This document shows, one piece after another, positions 5,366-46,374 of a stretch of 64,000 nt of DNA. The notes under the pieces were generated by a model. That model ran no database searches and was not told where the DNA came from. It saw only the letters and a program-made list of their open reading frames with translations. The stretch's first letter is position 1. Each line of letters opens with the position of its first letter. The translations under genes were made by a program, and so were the position numbers. The DNA is from Ostreococcus lucimarinus (lineage: Eukaryota): the NCBI GenBank assembly GCA_000092065.1, contig CP000581.1, one strand, 5' to 3'.

Positions 5366-6367
5366 TTACAGACGCGTCGACCACTCGTTGGTCGACTCGC
5401 TCTTGAATTTGTCTCCAAAAATGTGCAAGAAGACGCCGACCGCGCCTAATCCTGAGCACAAGCTTCCGGCCAAAAAGTAACAGGCTGGAAATACGAGGTT
5501 GCGTCCGCCGATCCAACTGTTTGTCGCCAATACAACGGCCTTTTCACCGTTAAACTTGTACGTGTTGTAGCGATTCTGTATCGTAAACGTGATCGTGTCG
5601 CCCTTGGCAATATCCGCATTGATCACGCCGACGAGTTTACGGAACTTACTCAGCGCCGCAGTGCGCATCCACGTCGCGAAGTCTTCGTCTGTGTCGACGT
5701 TGCCCGTAATCTGCCCCCCACCGCGAGTCGCTTGATCCGTATTCATATTCGTCGGTGCGTAATCCCCGAGCTTATACTTCAGATCCGATTTCCACGCGAT
5801 GTTCGCAGAGTCGATGGTCGTCGCCGCGCCGTTCACCGCCACCGCGTACGAATCGTTGAAAAAACTCCACGCCTGCACGCCGCAAGGGCTAATCTCGGCC
5901 CCCGCCGACGTCTTTTCGTGCGTCGTGCACAAGCCTTGAGACGGTTTCCCCATCAATTGGAAGTAATCCAAGTCCCTCACGAACGCGCGATGATTCTGGA
6001 AAAAGTTGCTCAATTCGTAGTACACGTACACCGGCTTGTTCATGTTCGACTTCGCCGTGAGCGTCACCGTGCACGTCGTCCCCGCGCCGTTAAACGACAT
6101 TTGCATCGCCTGTTCCGCCGAGGTCGGGAAAAATCCGCTCGCGCACGTCGCCGCGTCGTCGTATCTCTTCACCAGCGTGCGCAGATCGTTGGCGGTGTTG
6201 AAGATCGCCGCACCGACGGCGAAACACGCGACGCCGATGCTGATCATCAACTTCGCCGTGAGCGCGGGCGTGAGCGCCGGTCGCCTGGCCCAGAGCTGCT
6301 GCTGCGAGAACGCGCTGAACGCGGGCTTGCGCGACGTCGGCGCGGTCGTCCGCGCGGCGCCGGCCAT
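5366..6367 (-). CDS. CDC50/LEM3 (TMEM30) family P4-ATPase flippase beta subunit
   Basis: 333 aa with two transmembrane segments flanking a large ectodomain. It carries the CDC50 hallmark YYELSNFFQNHRAFVRD. Confidence 0.8.
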   Translation of the reverse strand: MAGAARTTAPTSRKPAFSAFSQQQLWARRPALTPALTAKLMISIGVACFAVGAAIFNTANDLRTLVKRYDDAATCASGFFPTSAEQAMQMSFNGAGTTCTVTLTAKSNMNKPVYVYYELSNFFQNHRAFVRDLDYFQLMGKPSQGLCTTHEKTSAGAEISPCGVQAWSFFNDSYAVAVNGAATTIDSANIAWKSDLKYKLGDYAPTNMNTDQATRGGGQITGNVDTDEDFATWMRTAALSKFRKLVGVINADIAKGDTITFTIQNRYNTYKFNGEKAVVLATNSWIGGRNLVFPACYFLAGSLCSGLGAVGVFLHIFGDKFKSESTNEWSTRL

Positions 6368-36468: not shown

Positions 36469-38394
36469 TCAGCTCGGTCCCATCGAGATTGGAACACCTT
36501 GCGAGGAAGCCTTGGAGCCAAGTTTTTCCTTCATGGTGTCCGTGGTCGAGCCCGGGGCGTCTTTGTAGTTGCCTAAAAACCTTGAGCGGAGTTCGCGGAA
36601 CATGGCGTCAGCCCTGTTGCCGCTCGTAGCGATGCCATCCTTCGTGCGCGAGACGCCGTCGAGCATGTCGTCGATGGACACCAATTGTCTACCGTCGCGT
36701 ACGCTCAATAATGCGGCTTCGTTGGCGACGTTGGCGAGCTCGGCGCCGGTGAAGCCTGGTGTGGCGCGAGAAATAACGTCGCACACAACGTCGACGTCTT
36801 CCTCGAGATCCAAACCGCGCAAGTGCACTGACAAGATTTGCGCTCTCCCTTGCTGCGTTGGCGGGCCGACAAACACGCGTCGCGTCAAACGACCGGGACG
36901 CAACAGCGCCGGATCGAGCGCGTCCGGTCGGTTCGTCGCAGCTAAAATCAAAATTCCACTGTCCTTGGCGAATCCGTCCATCTCTACCAGCAATTGATTG
37001 AGCGTTTGGTCGCGTTCTTCGTTCAGACCCGCGCCTCGCCGCGATCCGACGGCGTCGAGTTCGTCGATGAAAATAATCGCAGGTCTGGCCTTTCGCGCCT
37101 CGGCAAACAGCTCGCGAACGCGCGCCGCACCGCGGCCGACGAACAGTTCGACAAACTCGGACGCGGCGACGGGGAAAAACGCAACGCCGGATTCGCCCGC
37201 CACCGCGCGAGCGAGTAGCGTCTTACCCGTCCCCGGCGGTCCGACCAAAAGGCACCCCGTGGGAAGTCTGCCGCGAACGTTCTTGTACTTTTCGGCGTTC
37301 TTCATGATTTGCACCAATTCAAAAAGTTCGGCCTTTGCCTCTTGCACGCCCGCCACGTCGGCGAACGTCACCTTGTCGGCTTCGTCTGTGCGCGCAGCCT
37401 TTTTCCGCTTTTTATCGCCCGCACCGCTCTGTCTGTTGATGGCGTTCCGCATGATGATCATGAGCGGAATGATAGGCAACCACATCGCGAGCACGGTGAA
37501 CATACCGCGGGACGCCAATCTCGACACCGCCGCGGGAACCGCGCCGAATTCCACCCCCGCGGCTTCGAGCTTCTTCATCAGCTCTGCGTCGCCGACCAAT
37601 CGTTTCGTCTGCAGCGTTCTCGCACGCCCAACCGCCGCATTCGGCTTCAAATCGTACAACAATCGCGTCGACCCTTCCTCAAATCGCACCGTCGATATCT
37701 TCTTGCCCTTTAAATCCTTCAAAAACGAACTGTACATCGTCGTCGGCACCACCGGCGCCGCCGCCTTCTTCGCGTTGTGTCCCCTTATCGCCATCCCCGC
37801 CCCGACCGTCGCCGCCATCACCAACCCCAGCCTCCCCAGGCGCGTTCTCGCGCTCATCGCGATCGCTCGCGCCGGCGTCGCGATCACCAACCACACCAGC
37901 ACCGCGAACGCGCGTCGCGCCACCAGCCCGAGCAGCAGCGTTCGCGTCGCCACCCAGCGCCACGCCGAGAACGGTTTCCGCTCCACCGGCCCGAGATCAT
38001 CCGACGCCGCGCTCGCGCTCGCGCTCGCGTCATCCTCCCCACTCGCGCGTTCCGTCGCGCCGCCGTCGCCGCCATCGCGCGCCGCCGTCGCCGTCTTCGT
38101 CACCGCGTCCCGCTCGACGTCATTGCCTTCGCGCGCGTTATCCACCCCCTGCGGCGTCGACACCGCGCGCGCGCGGCTCTCGAGCCCCCGCGCGAGCGCG
38201 CCGTTCGCACCCGCATCGCTCGCGCGCGCTCGCGCGCCGAGCGCGGCGCTCGCGACGCCCCGGCGGTCCCGCGAACGCGTCGCGCGCGACGCCGACGTCG
38301 TCGTCGCGAATCCTCGCGCGCGGACGACGCCGCGCGGCGCGCTCGCGCGCGCGCGCGCGGCGCGCATCGCGGGCGACGGCATCGTCGTCGTCAT
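36469..38394 (-). CDS. FtsH-like AAA+ ATPase with FtsH N-terminal membrane topology but lacking the M41 peptidase domain
   Basis: A/R/T-rich presequence, two TM segments flanking an extracytoplasmic domain, then the AAA module GVQEAKAELFELVQIMKNAEKYKNVRGRLPTGCLLVGPPGTGKTLLARAVAGESGVAFF...IIFIDELDAVGSRRG...ATNRPDALDPALLRPGRLTRRV. The ORF stops about 90 aa after the AAA lid, where FtsH would begin its HEXXH protease domain. No downstream coding space remains before the CSE1 start. Confidence 0.7.
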   Translation of the reverse strand: MTTTMPSPAMRAARARASAPRGVVRARGFATTTSASRATRSRDRRGVASAALGARARASDAGANGALARGLESRARAVSTPQGVDNAREGNDVERDAVTKTATAARDGGDGGATERASGEDDASASASAASDDLGPVERKPFSAWRWVATRTLLLGLVARRAFAVLVWLVIATPARAIAMSARTRLGRLGLVMAATVGAGMAIRGHNAKKAAAPVVPTTMYSSFLKDLKGKKISTVRFEEGSTRLLYDLKPNAAVGRARTLQTKRLVGDAELMKKLEAAGVEFGAVPAAVSRLASRGMFTVLAMWLPIIPLMIIMRNAINRQSGAGDKKRKKAARTDEADKVTFADVAGVQEAKAELFELVQIMKNAEKYKNVRGRLPTGCLLVGPPGTGKTLLARAVAGESGVAFFPVAASEFVELFVGRGAARVRELFAEARKARPAIIFIDELDAVGSRRGAGLNEERDQTLNQLLVEMDGFAKDSGILILAATNRPDALDPALLRPGRLTRRVFVGPPTQQGRAQILSVHLRGLDLEEDVDVVCDVISRATPGFTGAELANVANEAALLSVRDGRQLVSIDDMLDGVSRTKDGIATSGNRADAMFRELRSRFLGNYKDAPGSTTDTMKEKLGSKASSQGVPISMGPS

Positions 38395-38617
38395 CGCGCG
38401 CGTCGACCGTCGCGTCGCGCGCGCGCGTCGAACACTGGCGCCGTCGGCGGGCGACTCGTCTCCTCAGTCAGCGACGCGCGGCGACGCGCGGCGACGACCT
38501 CGACGCGCGGCGCGCGCGAGCGGCGCGAGCGCCGTTCGAAGACGTCGGCGCGCGCGCGCCGCCGCGACGTCGCGGCGGCGCGGGACGCGCGCACCGCGCG
38601 AAGAGCCGCGCGACGTC

Positions 38618-41600
38618 ATGGCGGCGGCTTCGACGACGACGACGCGCGCGCGCGACGACGACGCGGGACGACGCGGGACGACGCGGGACGACGCGATGCG
38701 CCTCGACGCGATCCTCGAGAGCGTTCGAAGGGACATCGTCGGACACGGGGCGACGTTCGGCGGGGCGTACGGGACGAAGTCGCTGGTGTACGCCGACTAC
38801 ACGGCGAGCGGACGGGCGTCGCGAGCGGTGGAGCGGTGCGTCGCGCGAGACGTGCTGCCGATGTACGCGAACACGCACACGTCGACGTCGACGACGGGGT
38901 CGCAGACGTCGTGCTTTCGAGCGGAGGCGAGACAGGTGGTGGCGCAGTGCGTGAACGCGCGGGTGGGATACAGCGATAGACACGCCGACGTGGTGACGTT
39001 TACGGGAAGCGGGAGCACGAGCGCGATCGATCGGTTGGCGCGAGCGCTCGGGATGCACGTACCGTTACCGGTGAACGCGCCGAGGGAAGCGAGGCCGGTC
39101 GTGTTCGTCGGACCGCACGAACATCACAGTAATATTTTGCCCTGGCGCGAGTCGTGCGCGATTGTGGTGGAAATTCCAGAGGAAGAGAGCTCGGGAATGG
39201 TGGACGTGGACGCGTTGCGCGCGGCGCTGCGCGCGTACGCGTCACACGCGACGCTGATTGGAAGTTTTAGCGCGGCGAGTAACGTGACGGGGGTGAGGGC
39301 GGATGTGAATTTAATCACGGAGACGTTGCATCGAGGAAACGCGTTGGCGTTGTGGGACTACGCCGCCGCCGCGGCGTACGTCGACGTCGACATGAACCCG
39401 GTAGTTTTCGACGAAAACACCGGTGCGTTGAATCCGTACGTATACAAAGATGCGATATTTATGTCACCGCACAAGCTTCCGGGAGGGCCGGGTGCGCCCG
39501 GGATTTTAGTGGCAAAACGCGCATTGTTCGTGAACGAAGTGCCGAGCGAACCGGGCGGAGGAACTGTCTTTTATGTCACGAGCACCGATCACCGGTATTT
39601 AAGCAACAGAGTGGAGCGCGAAGAGGGTGGGACTCAAGACATCGTTGGAAGCATCCGCGCTGGCTTGGCGTTCCAAATGAAAGCTAACGTGGGGACGTCG
39701 TTGATTGAAGCGGCGGAGGAACGACTGCGACGACGATTGTTCGACGAGCTGGAGAAGGATGAGAATATTTGCTTACTCGGACCTCGGGCGAATTCGACGA
39801 CGAAGCGCTTGCCTATTGCGTCGTTTCTCATACGAGCCCCAGCGGTGGATTCGAAAAGTAGGTTTCTACACTACTCATTCACGTGCGCGGTGTTGAACGA
39901 CGTCTTCGGCGTGCAGGCGCGAGGCGGATGCGCGTGCGCAGGGCCGTACGCGCATCGTCTTCTCGGAATATCTCCAGCTGATGCAGCCGCGATCGAGGCG
40001 CACTTGCTAGACAAAGCCGAAGTATTACGACCTGGTTTTGCGCGCGTCAGTTTGCCATACTTCGCGTCTGATGCTGAGATTGAGTACACGTTGGCCGCGG
40101 TACGCGCCGTCGCCGCGCACGGCTGGCGCTTGCTGCCGATGTATCGCATGGACGCCAAGACGGGTGAATGGAGACACGCCCTTCGAGCACGAAGTTTCCC
40201 TGAACGCAAGTGGCTCGCACACATGCAGTTTCCTGTAGATTCGGAAGAAATACACGAATCACCGCCGAGTGAAGAGGAGATATCTCGCCGACTCGACGAA
40301 CAATTGAGCGTCGGGATGCGCATTCTGGAAACGTGCGGTCAGTATCGCGACGGTGAACAACAAGGCAAAGCGAAGAACGGTCAGTTACGCATGCCGAATT
40401 CAGGTGGTATGGCTGCGGATGAGCGCATGGTGCTCGCTGGAGGCCGCGGCGACGACGACTCGAGGCTCGCTTACGACGAGGGCGAAGAGGACGACGACGC
40501 TCCTGAGCCGACGACGAATATCGAGCGCGGCGACGCGCTTCGTTGGTTCATGTTTCCGTCCGAGGCGGCTGCCTTGCTTTCAATCGCGCTTCCAGAGCAC
40601 TCGCACAGCGGAATACTACCACTTAGTTACGTGCCTCCAACTGGGACGATCACCGGCGCATTGCGTCCGCCGAATATTTGCGGCGCTCGCGAATCGGCAC
40701 CAAACGCACACGGTCAAAGTTACCGAACCGAAAGCAGGAAACACCCACTGCGCGTGACGGAAGAGTCGGGAAGTATTCGATCGGGCTTGATTCATCAGCG
40801 AGCGGCACCGTTTTGTGTAGGTGATGCACCGAGCGCACCACAGCCTTCAGTCGCAGAGGCTGAATTTCGCGCCGAATCGACGCTCGAACCGCGCGTGCGA
40901 GAGCTCACACTCGACGTGTCACCACCGATGAAAGAAGTGACGGTGACGGAAGATAGCATGTCCGAAAAACGTGTTCCGATGACAAATGATCAAACGCTTG
41001 ATGGTGCCGTCAGAGAAAAAGAAGTGAAAAAGAAGAGACACAAGTTCGCCAAGCCGTCACCAAAGTTGTTGCGCATGGTGAACCAGGCGATACAAGACTT
41101 TGACATGATTCAACCCGGAGACCGTATTTTGCTTGGTCTTTCGGGAGGTAAAGATTCTCTCGCAATGTTACACATTCTGATGTGCATGATGTCGCGTTAT
41201 CCGCCCGGAACATTTACTCTCGCGTGCGCGACAGTAGATCCCGGCACCGAGGCGTTCAATCCTCGGCCTTTGATTCCTTATGTGGAATCTCTCGGCATCG
41301 AGTACCATTATCTCGAAGAAGAAATCATGGCGATGGCGGACGCGCACATGACTGGTGACAGTATTTGTGCGTTCTGCGCGCGTATGAAACGGGGCGCTCT
41401 ATACACGTGTTGTCGCAAGTATGGTTACAACAAGCTCGTTCTAGCACAACATTTAGATGACTGTGTGGAGAGTTTCCTGATGAGCACAATGTACAACGGA
41501 ACGATGCGAACGATGAAAGCGTCGTATCTCATCGACGAGGGTGATATCACTGTCATTCGTCCCGCCATTTACTTACGCGAGAAGGCTTTACGTGACTTTT

Positions 41601-42112
41601 CTTACGAAGCGGGATTGCCCGTCATCAACGAAAATTGTCCGGCGTGCTTCGAAGCGCCCAAGGAGAGACAGAACATCAAGAAACTTTTGTCTCGCGAAGA
41701 AAGTTCGTTCCCATCGCTGTATTCGTGCATGCGTAATGCGCTAATGCCACTTTTTGATCCTGCCGCTATGGATATACTATCTATGATTCGAGAAACAATC
41801 GATGGGAGAAACAAGTTTAAGGAGCGCGCCAAGGCGCAACGCGCCGAATCTCTCGCAAACGGGAAGTGCAATCCCAAACGCGGAGAAGTTTCAATCGCCA
41901 AGAATGGTGCGAACACCGAGCCTGGGACTGAGCTTAACATCAACGAACCGATAGAACTGTCCAGTGCGTCAGAGATGCAGCTACTGGCAGAGTTAAATAA
42001 AAGGCGTCGTGAACGCATTCGCCAAACCACGAAAACCAACGACAGTGAATTCGACGCCGATTTAACGGAGAAGCAAGTGTTTTGTACCGCAGAAGGATGC
42101 AAACGTGAGTAG
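38618..42112 (+). CDS. Fusion protein: class-V aminotransferase (cysteine desulfurase/selenocysteine lyase-like) domain + TtcA-type PP-loop tRNA 2-thiocytidine synthetase domain
   Basis: Track ORF 36998..42112. The first roughly 540 aa are antisense to FtsH; the real start is assumed at ATG 38618 (MAAASTTTT...). The N-terminal domain shows [15 protein letters not shown]...[16 protein letters not shown], a PLP-Lys motif [17 protein letters not shown] and GGCACAG. The C-terminal domain aligns to E. coli TtcA: [41 protein letters not shown] to [54 protein letters not shown] to CSLCSRLRRGILY, and [15 protein letters not shown] to LGHHRDDILQTLFLN. A 9-bp repeat (gacgcggga) x3 lies at 38655-38690. 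Confidence 0.7.
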   Translation: [1164 protein letters not shown]

Positions 42113-42153: not shown

Positions 42154-45100
42154 TTAAACTAACAATTGCGTGTCGTCGTCGTCAGCGCCGAGTTCAATAG
42201 TTTCGTATCCTTGCGAGAGGTCGATTTCATCGGACGCTTGTCTCTTGGCTTTGCGAGCCGGCGCGGGGCTAGCGCTTTTATGATTCAATTCCTGCTTCTG
42301 ACGCGCTGCCTCCGATTTTGCACACGATTCGGCGTAAGTTACGTATTCTTTGCACTCCTTTGCGCCTGGCAAGCTCTCAATCATCAGGCGAATGTGCGGG
42401 AGCGAGTAGCCAAAAAACTCTGGACCAGAAATCGCTGTCTTCTTCGCAACTTCGCCTCTAGCCTCGCGCGCAACTTTCGCTCGCTTGAGAACTTCAGCCC
42501 ACGCGGCGGTGGCGCTTTTGGCGACGATCCGCTCGCATCCGTGTTCGGCGGTGAGGGTGAACTGTGGTTCACCTTTTGGCCCTTCCGTGATCTCTTGCTC
42601 CCATTTACAGCGCTCGTCCAAGTTGTCCAATCGAGGGTACACGCGCACCGTCTTGAATCCGACAGGCAAAATGTACTGCTGCGTCACGAAGTCTTTTTTG
42701 TTCTTTATCTCTCCCAAACATTCGATCATGACGCCACTAACTGGACCTATCGGCATACGCAGATTACCGTCGTTGTCTCGCTTTGACTCTTTCAAAAATG
42801 TTTGCGCCTTGAGTAGCTTTTCCATCGTCGTACCAGAACCACTTCGCGGAGCGCCTTTAGGCTTCTTCTCACGCGGTAACTTGGGCGCCTTGGGCACCTT
42901 GGGCTTCACTGGGCGCTCAATTTTAGGCGGAGGCTCGTAAGATTTACCTCCGAGAACATTGAACACGCGCTTCACGCGATTACTCAAGAACCTTCCGTGG
43001 ATCCACTCGGGCTCGGCGTTCACGGCTTCTGTTTCAGTTTCGGCAATCGCGATTTCATCTTCGACGGGATGTTTCATCTTCTTTTCCTTCTTCGGCTCTG
43101 GCGCGATTTTCCCCGCAAAGTTGACGGCGAACGGCAAATCAACGTCGTCGCGGATTTCAGAATATTTCCCGAATCCATGTTTGAGCGTACCAACGACCAA
43201 CGCGCGATCGTGATCTTCTGTCCACCATTCCGCCAACGGCTCGGCGTGAAGTTCGGGGATGGGCATGCCTTCAGCCGTCAGGGCATTAGCGAATCCACCG
43301 GCCTTCTGAACGGCGCTAATGCCGCCTTGCAAGAGCTCGAGGCGAATCATATCGTCGCTGGCTCGTCCACGCAGGAAGTTATTGAAACCTTGCTCAGCCA
43401 TGATGTACGTGAGGTAATCTCGGCCTTCTTCTTCCGGCAGCGCTTTTTCATCGGCGTCTTCGTCAACCGTCACGACAGCGACAAGATTCGGGAACAGTTC
43501 AGACGAAAGTGACTTCATCGCTTCTTCGACGTAGCATCTACAGAAGAGCTTCACATGCGCGAGCGTTTTGTTCTCCTTGAGTTGCGAACGCTCTTTGATT
43601 TGCTCCCACATGCTCCAACCAAACAGCATAAATGATGCAACAACACGTTTGCGTTCACCCCACGACCACTGGAACGCATTCACGGAGTTCTGCTTCTCCA
43701 TCGCCAGCTTTTCAGCAGCTTGGAGTTTCTTCATGAGCTCCTCGGCTTCCGCCTTGCGTTCCTCCTCTGCCGCCGCCGCCTCGGGCATGAGCTTCTGCCA
43801 GAAATTAGGATCATCGAGCGAGACGCCATCGGCTGACCCACCGCCGTCGATAAATGTCGCAGTCGCAAACGTACTCGGTCCCGCATCATCCGTGTTCTCC
43901 TCCGAGCTCTTGATCAGTTTCTTTTCAGACTTGGCGAGAATATCGACGATGCTTTCGTTGCACCATTGTTGCGCGCGACTTTCATCCTCAGTGAACAGCC
44001 CGTACGCGCCGTGCTTGAGCAACTCTTCGATCTCTTTTCTCGACGCCGCGGCTGATTTCTCTTCCTTTTCTGCGCTCCCAAAGATGGCTTGTTCGAGACC
44101 GAGTTTCATCGACGCCCGCGTAAACATTTCCTTTTCGTACGTGGCCCGCATGACGAGTCGATATACCTGGACTTGGCGCGTTTGCCCGATGCGATGCGCT
44201 CTCGCGAGCGCCTGTGCATCGTTTTGCGGATTCCAGTCGCTGTCGAACATAACGACAGTGTCAGCCTGGACGAGGTTGATGCCTTGGCCTCCGGCGCGCG
44301 TGGAGAGGAGAAACAGAAAAGTGTCAGAATCCTCAGCGCAATACTTGTCGATCGCTTCTTGACGTGCTTTGCCGGTGATGCTACCGTCAAGTCGCACGTA
44401 AGAGTGACCTCGTGCGCGGCAATAATCCTCCAGGACGTCCAAAACGCGCGTCATTTGACTGAAGATGAGAGCTCGATGCCCACCTTCGCGAAGATGCGGA
44501 AGGAGCTTGTCCAAGAGCTGCAACTTTCCCGCGCTCGATACCAAGGCAGTGGTGCTCGCGCCTTCCGGCGCGATGGCAGCTTCGACGCCGTCGAGCAAAA
44601 ACGGGTGCTGGCAACACTTACGGACTTCCATCATGATGTTCGCAAAGTTTGCAAAACTCTCTCTCGAGTCGCAACCTTGCCGAAGAAAGGAAAAGTTACG
44701 CTCAAATAATGCACGATAGCACTTTTTCTGCAAAGGCGCGAGCTCGCACTCGACAAGTGTCTCACTTCGCGGTGGTAACTTTTGCTCGACGTCGCGCTTC
44801 AGTCGACGCAGCAAGTACGGACCAAGAACCTTTTGTAAACGCTCGACTTGCGCAGCCTTTGCCATGCCTCCAAACGCTTCTTCAAACTCCTCCGCGTTGG
44901 AGAAGTGCTTAGAATCGACAAAGTTCAGCAACGACCAGAGCTCGGTGGTGTTGTTTTGAAGCGGAGTGCCCGTGAGTAAGCAAATGCGCTCCACCGCGAG
45001 GCTGTTCAAATCGTTCCCAAGCTTACCTCCAACTCGTTTCAAGCGATGCGCTTCGTCGACGACCATCGTACTCCATTTTGCCTTCGCGAAAGATTGGCGA

Positions 45101-46374
45101 TCGGCAGTAATCGTTTCATAAGTAGTGAGGACGATATTAGCCTTAAACGCTCGCGATATGCTCTGGGTTTCGTCAACTGGGTGATACCAGTCGTGTTCTC
45201 GCGCGAATTCGCGACCGGCTTGCTTGCCGACGTGCGTCACCACGTACGCGTCCGGGACCCAGCGCTGCGCCTCGCGCTCCCAGTTCACAATCGTTGAAAG
45301 GGGAACGACGACAAGAGCAGGGAGACCTGGCCGCACTTGCAAGCAGTGATGTATGAGAGCTAGCGCCTGCGCAGTTTTCCCGAGACCCATCTCGTCCGCC
45401 AAGATGCACCCGCGTCCGGCTCGGAAGTTGAACGCCATCCACTTCACGCCTTCCTTCTGATACGATCGCAACTCGTCGGACTCTCCGTACGAGTCGCGCA
45501 CGGTGTCGGCATCGTACGAACTCCACGCATTGGCGACGTCCTCATCCGTCTCCGCATCAACGATGGCTTGGCGCTCGCGCGCCGCTGAAGCGCGGCTTCG
45601 GACGCGTTCAAACTCTTCCAAAGCGCTCGCACCACCTTCCATCTCGCGCACGGCAGTTATATCTTCCCAATTCGTCTCGTCATAACTCATTCGAGACCAC
45701 TTCACGCACACGAGTGTTCTGTCCACCTCTTCAAACATCGAAAAGACGCGGTCGACGACCAAGTAATCCGGTTTGACGTCCACGCACGGCCCGAGCTCCT
45801 TTGGATACTTATCGAAATACCTCGCCACACGCATCTTACCCTGCACACCACATGTCGGATCGTTTTCCAACGCCGTGACTTTCACCCACGTGCAATGCGC
45901 GTACGACGTACCTTTCCACTTTATCAACGTCTCCGTCTCCTCCTTTTCGCATCGTCGCCACCCGACGATGCTCTCCACTTCTCCCAACCGCTTGCTCTCC
46001 GCCGATTCTCGCGCCCACTGCCCTTCTTCCCACGCATGCATCCCACGCATCGCGTCTCTCGCGCACTCCATCGTCACAGACCGCTCGATCGCGTCCGCCT
46101 CCCCTCGCCTCGCCTCGCCGTCCAGCACGTCTCCCCAATCCACCTTTGCCCGCTTCTCAGCGCTCCCTTCCTCTCGTCCTTCGCTCACAGGCGCCTTCGA
46201 CGAATTCATGGGTTTCATCTCGAGCAGATCTTGCGCCGCGAGATCGACGTTCCCGTGTCTACGCTCGAGCACGGCGCTGATTACGTTCGCATCGAGCTCT
46301 TTGAATGCGCCCTCGAGCGAGCGTTGTTCGGAGCGATAGAGCGGACGCGTGCGTGGTCGCGACGCGGGAGACAT
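42154..46374 (-). CDS. CHD: CHD-type chromodomain-helicase-DNA-binding SNF2 ATPase with N-terminal CUE-like motif
   Basis: Chromo region ESIVGWRRCEKEETETLIKWKGTSYAHCTWV. The SNF2_N domain carries LRSYQKEGVKWMAFNFRAGRGCILADEMGLGKTAQ...DEAHRLKR. The helicase-C domain carries ALIFSQMTRVLDVLEDY...DGSITGKARQEAIDKY...FLLSTRAGGQGINLVQADTVVMFDSDWNPQNDAQALARAHRIGQTRQVQVYRL. The N-terminus FKELDANVISAVLERRHGNVDLAAQDLLEM is CUE-like. The track start is GTG at 46503; the first ATG is 46374. Confidence 0.8.
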   Translation of the reverse strand: MSPASRPRTRPLYRSEQRSLEGAFKELDANVISAVLERRHGNVDLAAQDLLEMKPMNSSKAPVSEGREEGSAEKRAKVDWGDVLDGEARRGEADAIERSVTMECARDAMRGMHAWEEGQWARESAESKRLGEVESIVGWRRCEKEETETLIKWKGTSYAHCTWVKVTALENDPTCGVQGKMRVARYFDKYPKELGPCVDVKPDYLVVDRVFSMFEEVDRTLVCVKWSRMSYDETNWEDITAVREMEGGASALEEFERVRSRASAARERQAIVDAETDEDVANAWSSYDADTVRDSYGESDELRSYQKEGVKWMAFNFRAGRGCILADEMGLGKTAQALALIHHCLQVRPGLPALVVVPLSTIVNWEREAQRWVPDAYVVTHVGKQAGREFAREHDWYHPVDETQSISRAFKANIVLTTYETITADRQSFAKAKWSTMVVDEAHRLKRVGGKLGNDLNSLAVERICLLTGTPLQNNTTELWSLLNFVDSKHFSNAEEFEEAFGGMAKAAQVERLQKVLGPYLLRRLKRDVEQKLPPRSETLVECELAPLQKKCYRALFERNFSFLRQGCDSRESFANFANIMMEVRKCCQHPFLLDGVEAAIAPEGASTTALVSSAGKLQLLDKLLPHLREGGHRALIFSQMTRVLDVLEDYCRARGHSYVRLDGSITGKARQEAIDKYCAEDSDTFLFLLSTRAGGQGINLVQADTVVMFDSDWNPQNDAQALARAHRIGQTRQVQVYRLVMRATYEKEMFTRASMKLGLEQAIFGSAEKEEKSAAASRKEIEELLKHGAYGLFTEDESRAQQWCNESIVDILAKSEKKLIKSSEENTDDAGPSTFATATFIDGGGSADGVSLDDPNFWQKLMPEAAAAEEERKAEAEELMKKLQAAEKLAMEKQNSVNAFQWSWGERKRVVASFMLFGWSMWEQIKERSQLKENKTLAHVKLFCRCYVEEAMKSLSSELFPNLVAVVTVDEDADEKALPEEEGRDYLTYIMAEQGFNNFLRGRASDDMIRLELLQGGISAVQKAGGFANALTAEGMPIPELHAEPLAEWWTEDHDRALVVGTLKHGFGKYSEIRDDVDLPFAVNFAGKIAPEPKKEKKMKHPVEDEIAIAETETEAVNAEPEWIHGRFLSNRVKRVFNVLGGKSYEPPPKIERPVKPKVPKAPKLPREKKPKGAPRSGSGTTMEKLLKAQTFLKESKRDNDGNLRMPIGPVSGVMIECLGEIKNKKDFVTQQYILPVGFKTVRVYPRLDNLDERCKWEQEITEGPKGEPQFTLTAEHGCERIVAKSATAAWAEVLKRAKVAREARGEVAKKTAISGPEFFGYSLPHIRLMIESLPGAKECKEYVTYAESCAKSEAARQKQELNHKSASPAPARKAKRQASDEIDLSQGYETIELGADDDDTQLLV

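Follow-up and report, generated by a model that had tools for sequence, protein, structure and literature searches.

An intron-less Ostreococcus lucimarinus gene joins a desulfurase-like PLP module to a TtcA-type module in a probable tRNA-thiolation enzyme

The window analysed here is a stretch of 64,000 nucleotides from the marine green picoalga Ostreococcus lucimarinus (assembly GCA_000092065.1, contig CP000581.1). It contains a single open reading frame (ORF) in which a desulfurase-like module dependent on pyridoxal 5'-phosphate (PLP) is followed by a module of the TtcA type. We consider it fairly probable that this is an intron-less nuclear gene of the Mamiellales type, whose product of 1164 amino acids (aa) would be a bifunctional tRNA-thiolation enzyme, probably cytosolic and orthologous to the 'IscS/CsdA-TtcA' fusion of Aplysia. 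The modified nucleoside 2-thiocytidine (s2C) was long thought to be confined to bacteria and archaea. The first eukaryotic s2C was described in a preprint of 28 September 2026, at position 32 (s2C32) of the Aplysia tRNA-Lys(UUU), together with a 1177-aa 'IscS-TtcA' fusion which has a CsdA domain, a TtcA-like domain, a conserved Lys, a C-x-C pair, the motifs SGGKDS, CSFC and CPAC and a poorly conserved linker (bioRxiv 10.64898/2026.09.27.754811). This fusion was found in 28 mollusc species and reported in birds and insects (same preprint). The architecture is real, and it is neither new nor specific to algae: the gene adds an algal member to an enzyme family of eukaryotes which is known but still uncharacterised. 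The features on which this reading is based are the following.

38618-42112, plus strand: complete coding sequence, 1164 codons plus stop, no intron needed; same ORF in the loci L004, L002 and L003
38696-40603, plus strand: desulfurase-like PLP module (aa 27-662); standalone bacterial proteins of 555-590 aa are colinear with it from one end to the other
38786-40084, plus strand: Pfam Aminotran_5 core (aa 57-489, E 5.8e-30)
39473-39475, plus strand: K286, predicted PLP Schiff-base lysine in SPHK, aligned to the lysine of the SufS 'SGHK'; invariant in the fused (n=25) and bacterial (n=8) alignments
39929-39937, plus strand: C438-A-C440 loop, in a ten-residue motif; C440 stands at the position of the persulfide-forming Cys of SufS
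40538-40564, plus strand: LRWFMFPSE (aa 641-649), marking the C-terminal end of the PLP module; also in the insect Cimex
41015-41776, plus strand: TtcA-type PP-loop ATP-pyrophosphatase module (aa 800-1053; NCBIfam NF007972, E 3.1e-57)
41141-41158, plus strand: PP-loop SGGKDS (aa 842-847), predicted ATP-binding and adenylation motif, invariant in 25/25 and aligned to the E. coli SGGKDS
41366-41377, plus strand: C917-A-F-C920, opposite Cys122 and Cys125 of E. coli TtcA, which are [4Fe-4S] ligands
41636-41647, plus strand: C1007-P-A-C1010, opposite C210 and C213 of E. coli; C1010 is the third cluster-ligand position

The assignment of the first half to the class-V aminotransferases, made in a preliminary description of this DNA from its letters alone, was supported by the Pfam scan, and the NCBIfam SufS subfamily also matches this half (aa 54-448, E 9.6e-30). 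Searches of the PDB by sequence gave type-II cysteine desulfurases for the first half of the protein, and in Foldseek comparisons the AlphaFold2 model was similar to Nfs2, SufS and CsdB with target-normalised TM-scores of 0.76-0.82. The desulfurase motifs quoted previously are all where they had been placed, namely YADYTASGR at aa 58-66, a 13-residue motif with the PLP lysine at aa 283-295 and GGCACAG at aa 436-442. In the HMMER alignment to solved SufS proteins RGGCACAGP lies opposite RSGHHCAQP and SPHK opposite SGHK, so that K286 and C440 are aligned with the PLP lysine and the catalytic cysteine. The module has therefore the S-x-H-K Schiff-base lysine of a fold-type I PLP enzyme and, in C440, the cysteine which type-II desulfurases carry on a short C-terminal loop for persulfide formation. 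Moreover, another ten-residue motif aligns with EHHANLVPW of SufS; the motif EHHSN(I/L)LPW and R476 are conserved. Across the alignment of 25 fused homologs H285, K286, C438, C440 and R476 are invariant, and the two cysteines are also present in all eight aligned bacterial proteins (25/25 and 8/8).

The module does not end with the Aminotran_5 core. Residues L641, R642, W643, F644 and P647 are invariant with respect to the bacterial homologs, W643 and F644 also in the 25 fused proteins, and the AlphaFold2 model contains a confident helix at aa 552-572 and another at aa 647-661, where the predicted local distance difference test (pLDDT) is 84-90. The whole model (mean pLDDT 69) consists of two well-folded bodies, aa 30-530 and aa 810-1005. 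Judged by its profile scores and alignments, the PLP module is a distinct subfamily, apart from the curated SufS, CsdA and IscS families, and our literature searches found no characterised member of it.

The C-terminal assignment was likewise supported, by Pfam ATP_bind_3, the PP-loop family (aa 837-1002, E 1.1e-11), and by the NCBIfam TtcA profile, and the PDB sequence matches to the second half of the protein were to TtuA. Chance cannot account for matches of this strength in the two halves. TtcA is by far the best-scoring PP-loop family, with 194 bits compared with 47 for TilS, 34 for TtuA and 30 for NcsA. It had been claimed that the last 330 aa or so align along their whole length with E. 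coli TtcA. The homology stands (34% identity, E 2e-46), but it covers only 245 residues, and aa 1061-1164 form a tail which is not of TtcA. All the TtcA motifs previously quoted are present (SGGKDS, a 13-residue motif, PACF and a ten-residue motif, the last at aa 944-953), and SGGKDS, C917, C920, C1007 and C1010 are invariant across the 25 fused homologs. In E. coli TtcA the residues Cys122, Cys125 and Cys222 are essential and bind a [4Fe-4S] cluster, the protein is a dimer, and only its [4Fe-4S] form is active (Bouvier et al. 2014, PMC4081106). The numbering of that paper (Cys200, Cys219 and Cys222) is offset by nine from that of RefSeq (191, 210 and 213), while Cys122 and Cys125 agree. Since the cysteines of E. 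coli TtcA (reference locus L001, 6014-6949) sit at 45, 122, 125, 191, 210 and 213, Cys219 and Cys222 of the paper correspond to 210 and 213.

The fused architecture is widespread. Of the 120 best database homologs, 114 have both Pfam domains, and the lengths of these 114 are 930-1420 aa. These best homologs belong to prasinophytes, oomycetes, brown algae, labyrinthulids and euglenids, and their sources include Prasinoderma, Pseudoscourfieldia, Pylaiella, Chrysoparadoxa, Hondaea, Mucochytrium, Paraphysomonas and Euglena and, among the oomycetes, Phytophthora, Aphanomyces, Saprolegnia, Pythium, Albugo and Peronospora. Some of the 120 are derived from transcriptomes (MMETSP, Trinity assemblies, Euglena). 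A profile search of 1.84 billion representative proteins gave, among the 150 top matches listed, mostly proteins of 900-1400 aa, many of which span both modules in one stretch; ten matches that were looked up add Rhodelphis marinus, Vitrella brassicaformis and the insect Cimex lectularius. The previous statement that this architecture had not been described therefore does not hold, given these homologs, the named database entries and the 2026 preprint, although literature searches for the fusion returned nothing earlier than that preprint.

The names given to family members in databases vary. The orthologs of Pseudoscourfieldia and Pycnococcus are called 'tRNA-cytidine(32) 2-sulfurtransferase' in GenBank, the Cimex ortholog is the 'tRNA 2-thiocytidine biosynthesis protein TtcA' in UniRef, and a JGI label reads 'selenocysteine lyase/cysteine desulfurase/tRNA(Ile)-lysidine synthase'. 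The label 'Cytoplasmic tRNA 2-thiolation protein 1' of the Hondaea ortholog looks like a mis-annotation, because the matches to Ctu1/NcsA/TtuA are far weaker than those to TtcA and the sulfur source is different. Among named proteins, a partial model of Micromonas commoda comes nearest to the N-terminal half (74% identity).

With the animal proteins the algal protein shares the order N-terminal COG0520-type domain, long variable linker and C-terminal TtcA-like domain. The fusion of Aplysia (LOC101861551) has the same module order, a similar length (1177 aa), the PLP lysine, C-x-C, SGGKDS, CxFC, CPxC and a long variable linker, and the distance from the lysine to the CxC pair is 152 aa in the algal protein and 147 aa in Aplysia. 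This likeness rests on motifs and on the insect ortholog: Cimex XP_014244961.1 is colinear with the algal protein, with 46% identity in the PLP part (E 3e-133) and 50% in the TtcA part (E 8e-72), an identical 11-residue motif and a shared LRWFM-PSEA. In contrast to Aplysia, the gene described here is algal and has no introns, its linker (as reassigned below) has about 145 aa and not the 405 aa quoted for Aplysia, and it carries an additional C-terminal tail with a cysteine pair.

Compared with better known enzymes, each module has a close bacterial counterpart and a more distant characterised one. E. coli TtcA has the PP-loop and the three cluster cysteines in common with the algal domain, which is however nearer to a clade of short (about 250 aa) bacterial proteins (52-56% identity) and lacks the C-terminal region of the E. 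coli enzyme; furthermore E. coli TtcA relies on IscS in trans, whereas the algal domain is fused to its presumed sulfur source. The type-II desulfurases SufS, CsdA/CsdB and plastid Nfs2 share the fold of the N-terminal module and have the PLP lysine, EHH(A/S)N, the substrate arginine and the catalytic cysteine at the same positions. Nevertheless the identity is about 21%, the loop is CxC and not HHC, a PLP-contacting Gln is replaced by Ala, the C-terminus is extended by about 170 aa that end in LRWF, and no SufE or SufU partner is evident for the algal protein. A standalone bacterial family annotated as 'aminotransferase class V-fold PLP-dependent enzyme' is much closer, being colinear with aa 27-662 at 45-50% identity and having both RGGCxCAGPY and LRWFPLPxE, but it is neither fused to nor located beside TtcA (0/80 loci). 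Ctu1/Ncs6/NcsA and TtuA belong to the same superfamily as TtcA and use the same logic of cluster plus adenylation; they give only the weak matches mentioned above. These enzymes draw their sulfur from ubiquitin-like thiocarboxylates.

From these correspondences a mechanism can be proposed. In the N-terminal module L-cysteine would be bound on the PLP of K286 and its sulfur passed to C440 as a persulfide, with C438 as a possible relay. The TtcA module would hold a [4Fe-4S] cluster on C917, C920 and C1010, and SGGKDS with ATP would adenylate O2 of cytidine 32 in selected tRNAs. The flexible linker would allow the TtcA module to reach the persulfide either in cis or across a homodimer, and the sulfur would be transferred to the free iron of the cluster, from where it would displace AMP to give s2C32. 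SufS is a dimer, and with the dimeric state of TtcA this is the basis for considering a hand-over across the dimer. The covalent fusion would make a diffusible relay unnecessary. Every residue that this mechanism requires is conserved in the alignment of fused homologs, and the observation that donor-like and acceptor-like enzymes are covalently linked in one polypeptide is supported, the catalytic residues of both being conserved.

Some points weigh against this reading. None of the cut-offs for SufS, CsdA and IscS is reached (TIGR01979 gives 104 bits against 475, and the others are far below), and with NF007972 the algal protein scores below the cut-off of 272, with short bacterial relatives at 200-217 and E. 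coli TtcA at 514. As both modules score below the curated NCBIfam cut-offs we infer their functional equivalence, and the C-terminal one is better called a TtcA-family module than a proven equivalog. The PLP-contacting Gln of SufS is Ala in this family, as the alignment to SufS shows. In addition, the functions of the fused family, of the standalone bacterial desulfurase-like family and of the short bacterial TtcA-like clade are assigned by inference, in Aplysia the gene and s2C32 are connected by correlation, and the AlphaFold2 model is uninformative on contact between the two domains.

The reading frame starts with the ATG at 38618 and runs without interruption through 1164 codons to the stop at 42110-42112. 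The linker between the modules is the part where a hidden boundary could be expected, and it had been described as a low-complexity stretch of about 230 aa. A low-complexity and disordered stretch exists, but the N-terminal module extends to about residue 662 and the true linker has about 145 aa. What had been taken for linker has three parts: the conserved C-terminal extension of the PLP module, an acidic insertion and the true linker.

40346-40519, plus strand: acidic low-complexity insertion (aa 577-634), lineage-specific, inside the N-terminal module, absent from bacterial homologs
40604-41032, plus strand: true linker between the modules (aa 663-805), with little conservation, mostly predicted disordered, translated
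40739-40753, plus strand: K-H-P-L-R motif (aa 708-712) in the linker, short and conserved, with P710 nearly invariant
41798-42109, plus strand: C-terminal tail (aa 1061-1164), helical or disordered, not TtcA-like, ending in FC(1156)TAEGC(1161)

In the insertion the pLDDT is below 50 at aa 577-591 and 608-634, and a helix is predicted at aa 597-606. The linker itself is translated, because its divergence is codon-periodic, its indels against the closer relative L002 are in frame and its ratio of nonsynonymous to synonymous change (pN/pS) is about 0.39. There is no stop in frame 0 of the linker and there are 10 in each of the other two frames. A frame-agnostic DNA alignment with L002 (about 78% protein identity) contains three indels, of 3, 6 and 3 nt, and its mismatches number 65, 57 and 145 at codon positions 1, 2 and 3. 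With L003 (about 72% identity) the mismatches are again mainly at third positions, although the indels in the DNA alignment are of 6, 7, 12 and 13 nt. The pN/pS value is the same against both loci, compared with 0.07-0.19 in the two domains. An independent metagenome contig (L004) differs from the gene by 3 nt; the exact protein is absent from a collection of 15 billion proteins, in which a version differing by 2 aa is present (P0001/L004). Gene order in L003 and L004 is that of the window; in both, an AAA ATPase gene is the head-to-head neighbour of the fused gene and a Chromo-SNF2 gene its tail-to-tail neighbour.

Two sets of open frames were considered as gene models and rejected. The frame of the gene remains open on the plus strand for 1.6 kb upstream of the ATG (36998-38617), a situation which could mislead ORF-based gene calling. 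An extension to the TTG at 36998 was regarded as a GC-rich frame artefact, antisense to the AAA-ATPase gene; about 150 codons before 38618 contain no ATG, and the homologs begin at the equivalent Met. The minus-strand ORFs inside the gene (38468-39058, 39871-40323 and 41602-42102) were judged to be artefacts of the same kind, from the codon evidence of the plus frame alone.

The bacterial relatives of the two halves are separate genes. The N-terminal half is about 50% identical over 96% of its length to the standalone family, which is very large (L014-L093; P0255-P0359) and occurs in at least 597 bacterial species genomes of Actinomycetota, Myxococcota, Chloroflexota and Acidimicrobiia, among others. 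Eight of these proteins were aligned; all have the same RGGCxCAGPY loop, and their invariant LRWFPLPxE end corresponds to aa 641-649. A tblastn search for TtcA at 80 standalone loci, which cover 1.33 Mb with flanks of at most 10 kb on either side, gave zero matches, the clustering of neighbours at these 80 loci gave no recurrent partner (the commonest family occurs at 7/80), and the neighbours of three other standalone PLP genes showed no operon that could be a precursor of the fusion. The closest non-fused relative of the eukaryotic TtcA domain is the short clade (L006-L009; P0171-P0240), with 'TtcA family' proteins from Thiotrichales, Chromatiales, Thiothrix and Rhodobacteraceae, and the two bacterial genes of this type that were examined have no desulfurase next door. 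At the loci looked at, the short gene lies directly upstream of a lipid-A acyltransferase gene of the Lip_A_acyltrans family, which overlaps its end by a few bases. In neighbour-joining trees the split between the fused eukaryotic proteins and the sampled bacterial ones had a bootstrap support of 90/100 with the TtcA part and of 100/100 with the PLP module; only best matches were sampled and the method is simple, which makes the split suggestive and not final. Four short 'bacterial' sequences, proven or apparent fragments of eukaryotic genes, were left out of the trees: P0131 (an MMETSP transcript), P0146 (Phaeothamnion), P0135 and P0172. Since both halves form eukaryote-only clades, the trees suggest a single fusion in eukaryotes, from two genes of bacterial type for which no linkage was seen in the sampled bacteria.

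The possibility that the locus consists of two separate genes, joined by a missed intron or stop in the linker or by a chimeric assembly, is extremely improbable and can be regarded as already largely refuted. It could be argued from public gene calls that split the locus, such as P0066 (640 aa) and P0124 (479 aa), both on one contig (L005), and from the Micromonas commoda RefSeq model XP_002505782.1, which is a 501-aa 'partial' protein. However, L005, which is a pilon-polished long-read metagenome contig and comes from a related alga, shows three +1 frame slips in its GC-rich linker (5500-6000), where the homologous peptide runs through frames 0, 1 and 2 and back to 0. The peptide continues in the next frame each time and we rejected the two-protein call as an artefact of assembly and gene calling. 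The evidence from the linker of the window has the same bearing, and one ORF is kept in three further independent assemblies and in more than 100 homologs, transcriptomes included; for the Aplysia gene even RNA-seq coverage was reported (bioRxiv 10.64898/2026.09.27.754811). The claim of a single-ORF fusion, with both domains matched in one frame, was thus confirmed. Very improbable as well is that the TtcA half was recently acquired from bacteria and grafted onto an algal gene. The GC content, which falls from 0.71 at the 5' end to 0.49 in the TtcA part, and the identity of 52-56% to gammaproteobacterial and alphaproteobacterial proteins would agree with such a transfer. The lower GC content had been presented as special and given as 40-48%; it measures 48.7-49.7% in 300-nt windows, and it is not peculiar to this gene, because GC falls from 5' to 3' in 13 of the 15 long ORFs of the window and the 3' end of the convergent neighbour is equally GC-poor. 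A phylogeny of the TtcA half had been recommended to look for a bacterial origin, and it placed the fused eukaryotic domains in one clade apart from the sampled bacterial ones (90/100); the same fusion, moreover, occurs from euglenids to insects.

Two other explanations accept the fusion and concern what it does and where. The chemistry could be different, the PLP module being a selenocysteine lyase, a C-S lyase or another class-V enzyme and the PP-loop module modifying another nucleoside, another position or a substrate that is not tRNA. We regard this as unlikely. It is in its favour that both modules fall below the equivalog cut-offs and within uncharacterised sister clades (the TtcA family of about 250 aa at 200-217 bits, and the PLP family of 555-590 aa which is generically annotated), that the CxC loop and the LRWF extension are foreign to SufS, and that in bacteria the standalone PLP genes are not accompanied by TtcA, which implies another role there. 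On the other hand TtcA clearly outscores the other PP-loop families, its three essential cysteines are invariant, as are the catalytic Lys, Cys, His and Arg of the desulfurases, and s2C32 and the fused gene co-occur in Aplysia. The window contains no tRNA gene in which C32 could be inspected. The second explanation is import into the plastid or the mitochondrion, where the enzyme would thiolate organellar tRNAs, and it involves the 5' end of the gene.

38395-38617, no strand: divergent intergenic spacer of 223 bp to the minus-strand AAA-ATPase gene; same arrangement in L003 with a spacer of 173 bp
38618-38695, plus strand: non-conserved N-terminal extension (aa 1-26, with 7 Asp and 5 Arg), not a convincing transit peptide; pLDDT below 50 for aa 1-21

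An organellar presequence had been suggested for this gene, and it was not borne out: the bacterial homologs begin opposite a point only some 26 residues into the algal protein, this stretch contains seven Asp, and the extension is not conserved. A hidden upstream exon would have little room in the 223 bp between the ATG and the divergent neighbour. Import is in our opinion quite unlikely, and the protein is probably cytosolic, as far as can be predicted from its N-terminus and its relatives. Import would be consistent with the first 12 residues, which are rich in A, S, T and R, with the bacterial type of the TtcA domain, as organellar tRNAs are bacterial-like, and with the long N-terminal extensions of some homologs (Prasinoderma, Pseudoscourfieldia and Pylaiella). 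Nevertheless, N-termini are unalignable across the fused family and in the relatives P0007 and P0012 there is hardly any extension, while the neighbouring AAA protein gives an example of a typical acid-free presequence from the same genome. The gene is also retained in non-photosynthetic oomycetes and in insects, and the Aplysia tRNA-Lys(UUU) that carries s2C32 is treated in the preprint as cytoplasmic and also bears mcm5s2U (5-methoxycarbonylmethyl-2-thiouridine) (bioRxiv 10.64898/2026.09.27.754811).

Two short elements outside the catalytic modules are conserved in part of the family. The linker motif, in the form K-[HYF]-P-x-R, is kept from Mamiellales to oomycetes, labyrinthulids and Chrysoparadoxa, and it could be a docking or processing site. 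The cysteine pair FCTAEGC (42083-42100, aa 1156-1161) terminates the tail in the Mamiellales-like clade, the ochrophyte tail ends in C..DGxYCxPC[YFH]EL, and oomycetes and euglenids have neither tail. Such Cys-pair tails could be lineage-specific elements for metal binding or sulfur relay.

The neighbouring genes and the base composition of the window deserve a short description. The minus-strand gene at 36472-38394, head to head with the fused gene (an arrangement kept in L003), encodes a 641-aa FtsH-like AAA+ protein with AAA and AAA_lid_3 and no Peptidase_M41 match in the domain scan. Its N-terminus is long, acid-free and rich in A, R, S and T and resembles a transit peptide. The gene at 42157-46374, also on the minus strand, lies tail to tail with the fused gene, with 41 bp from stop to stop, and this synteny is kept in L003 and L004; it encodes a 1406-aa chromatin remodeler with Chromo, SNF2, Helicase_C and CHD1-type helix-turn-helix domains and C-terminal FYRN and FYRC. 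In the 13 long ORFs mentioned above the first quarter is markedly richer in GC than the last one, mainly at third codon positions, and the saw-tooth GC profile of the window (0.49-0.77) stems from this fall within ORFs.

In this marine green picoalga purifying selection acts on an intact fused gene, and the locus follows the pattern of its family throughout and does not represent a new kind of system. Our searches extend the fused family to stramenopiles, euglenids, Rhodelphis, chromerids and insects, which argues for an old and widely retained eukaryotic pathway. It is possible, with a chance that we would put a little short of even, that the protein is a self-contained and relay-free cytosolic thiolation machine, independent of mitochondrial NFS1 and of Urm1/Uba4, that goes back to one ancient fusion. 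If this is true, s2C would be widespread in the tRNAs of algae, oomycetes, euglenids, alveolates and many animals and would have been overlooked there, and the N-terminal module would give the first functional handle on the large CxC 'desulfurase-like' family of bacteria. Moreover these compact and intron-free genes can be easy material for the biochemistry of a direct hand-over of sulfur from a desulfurase to a [4Fe-4S] thiolase.

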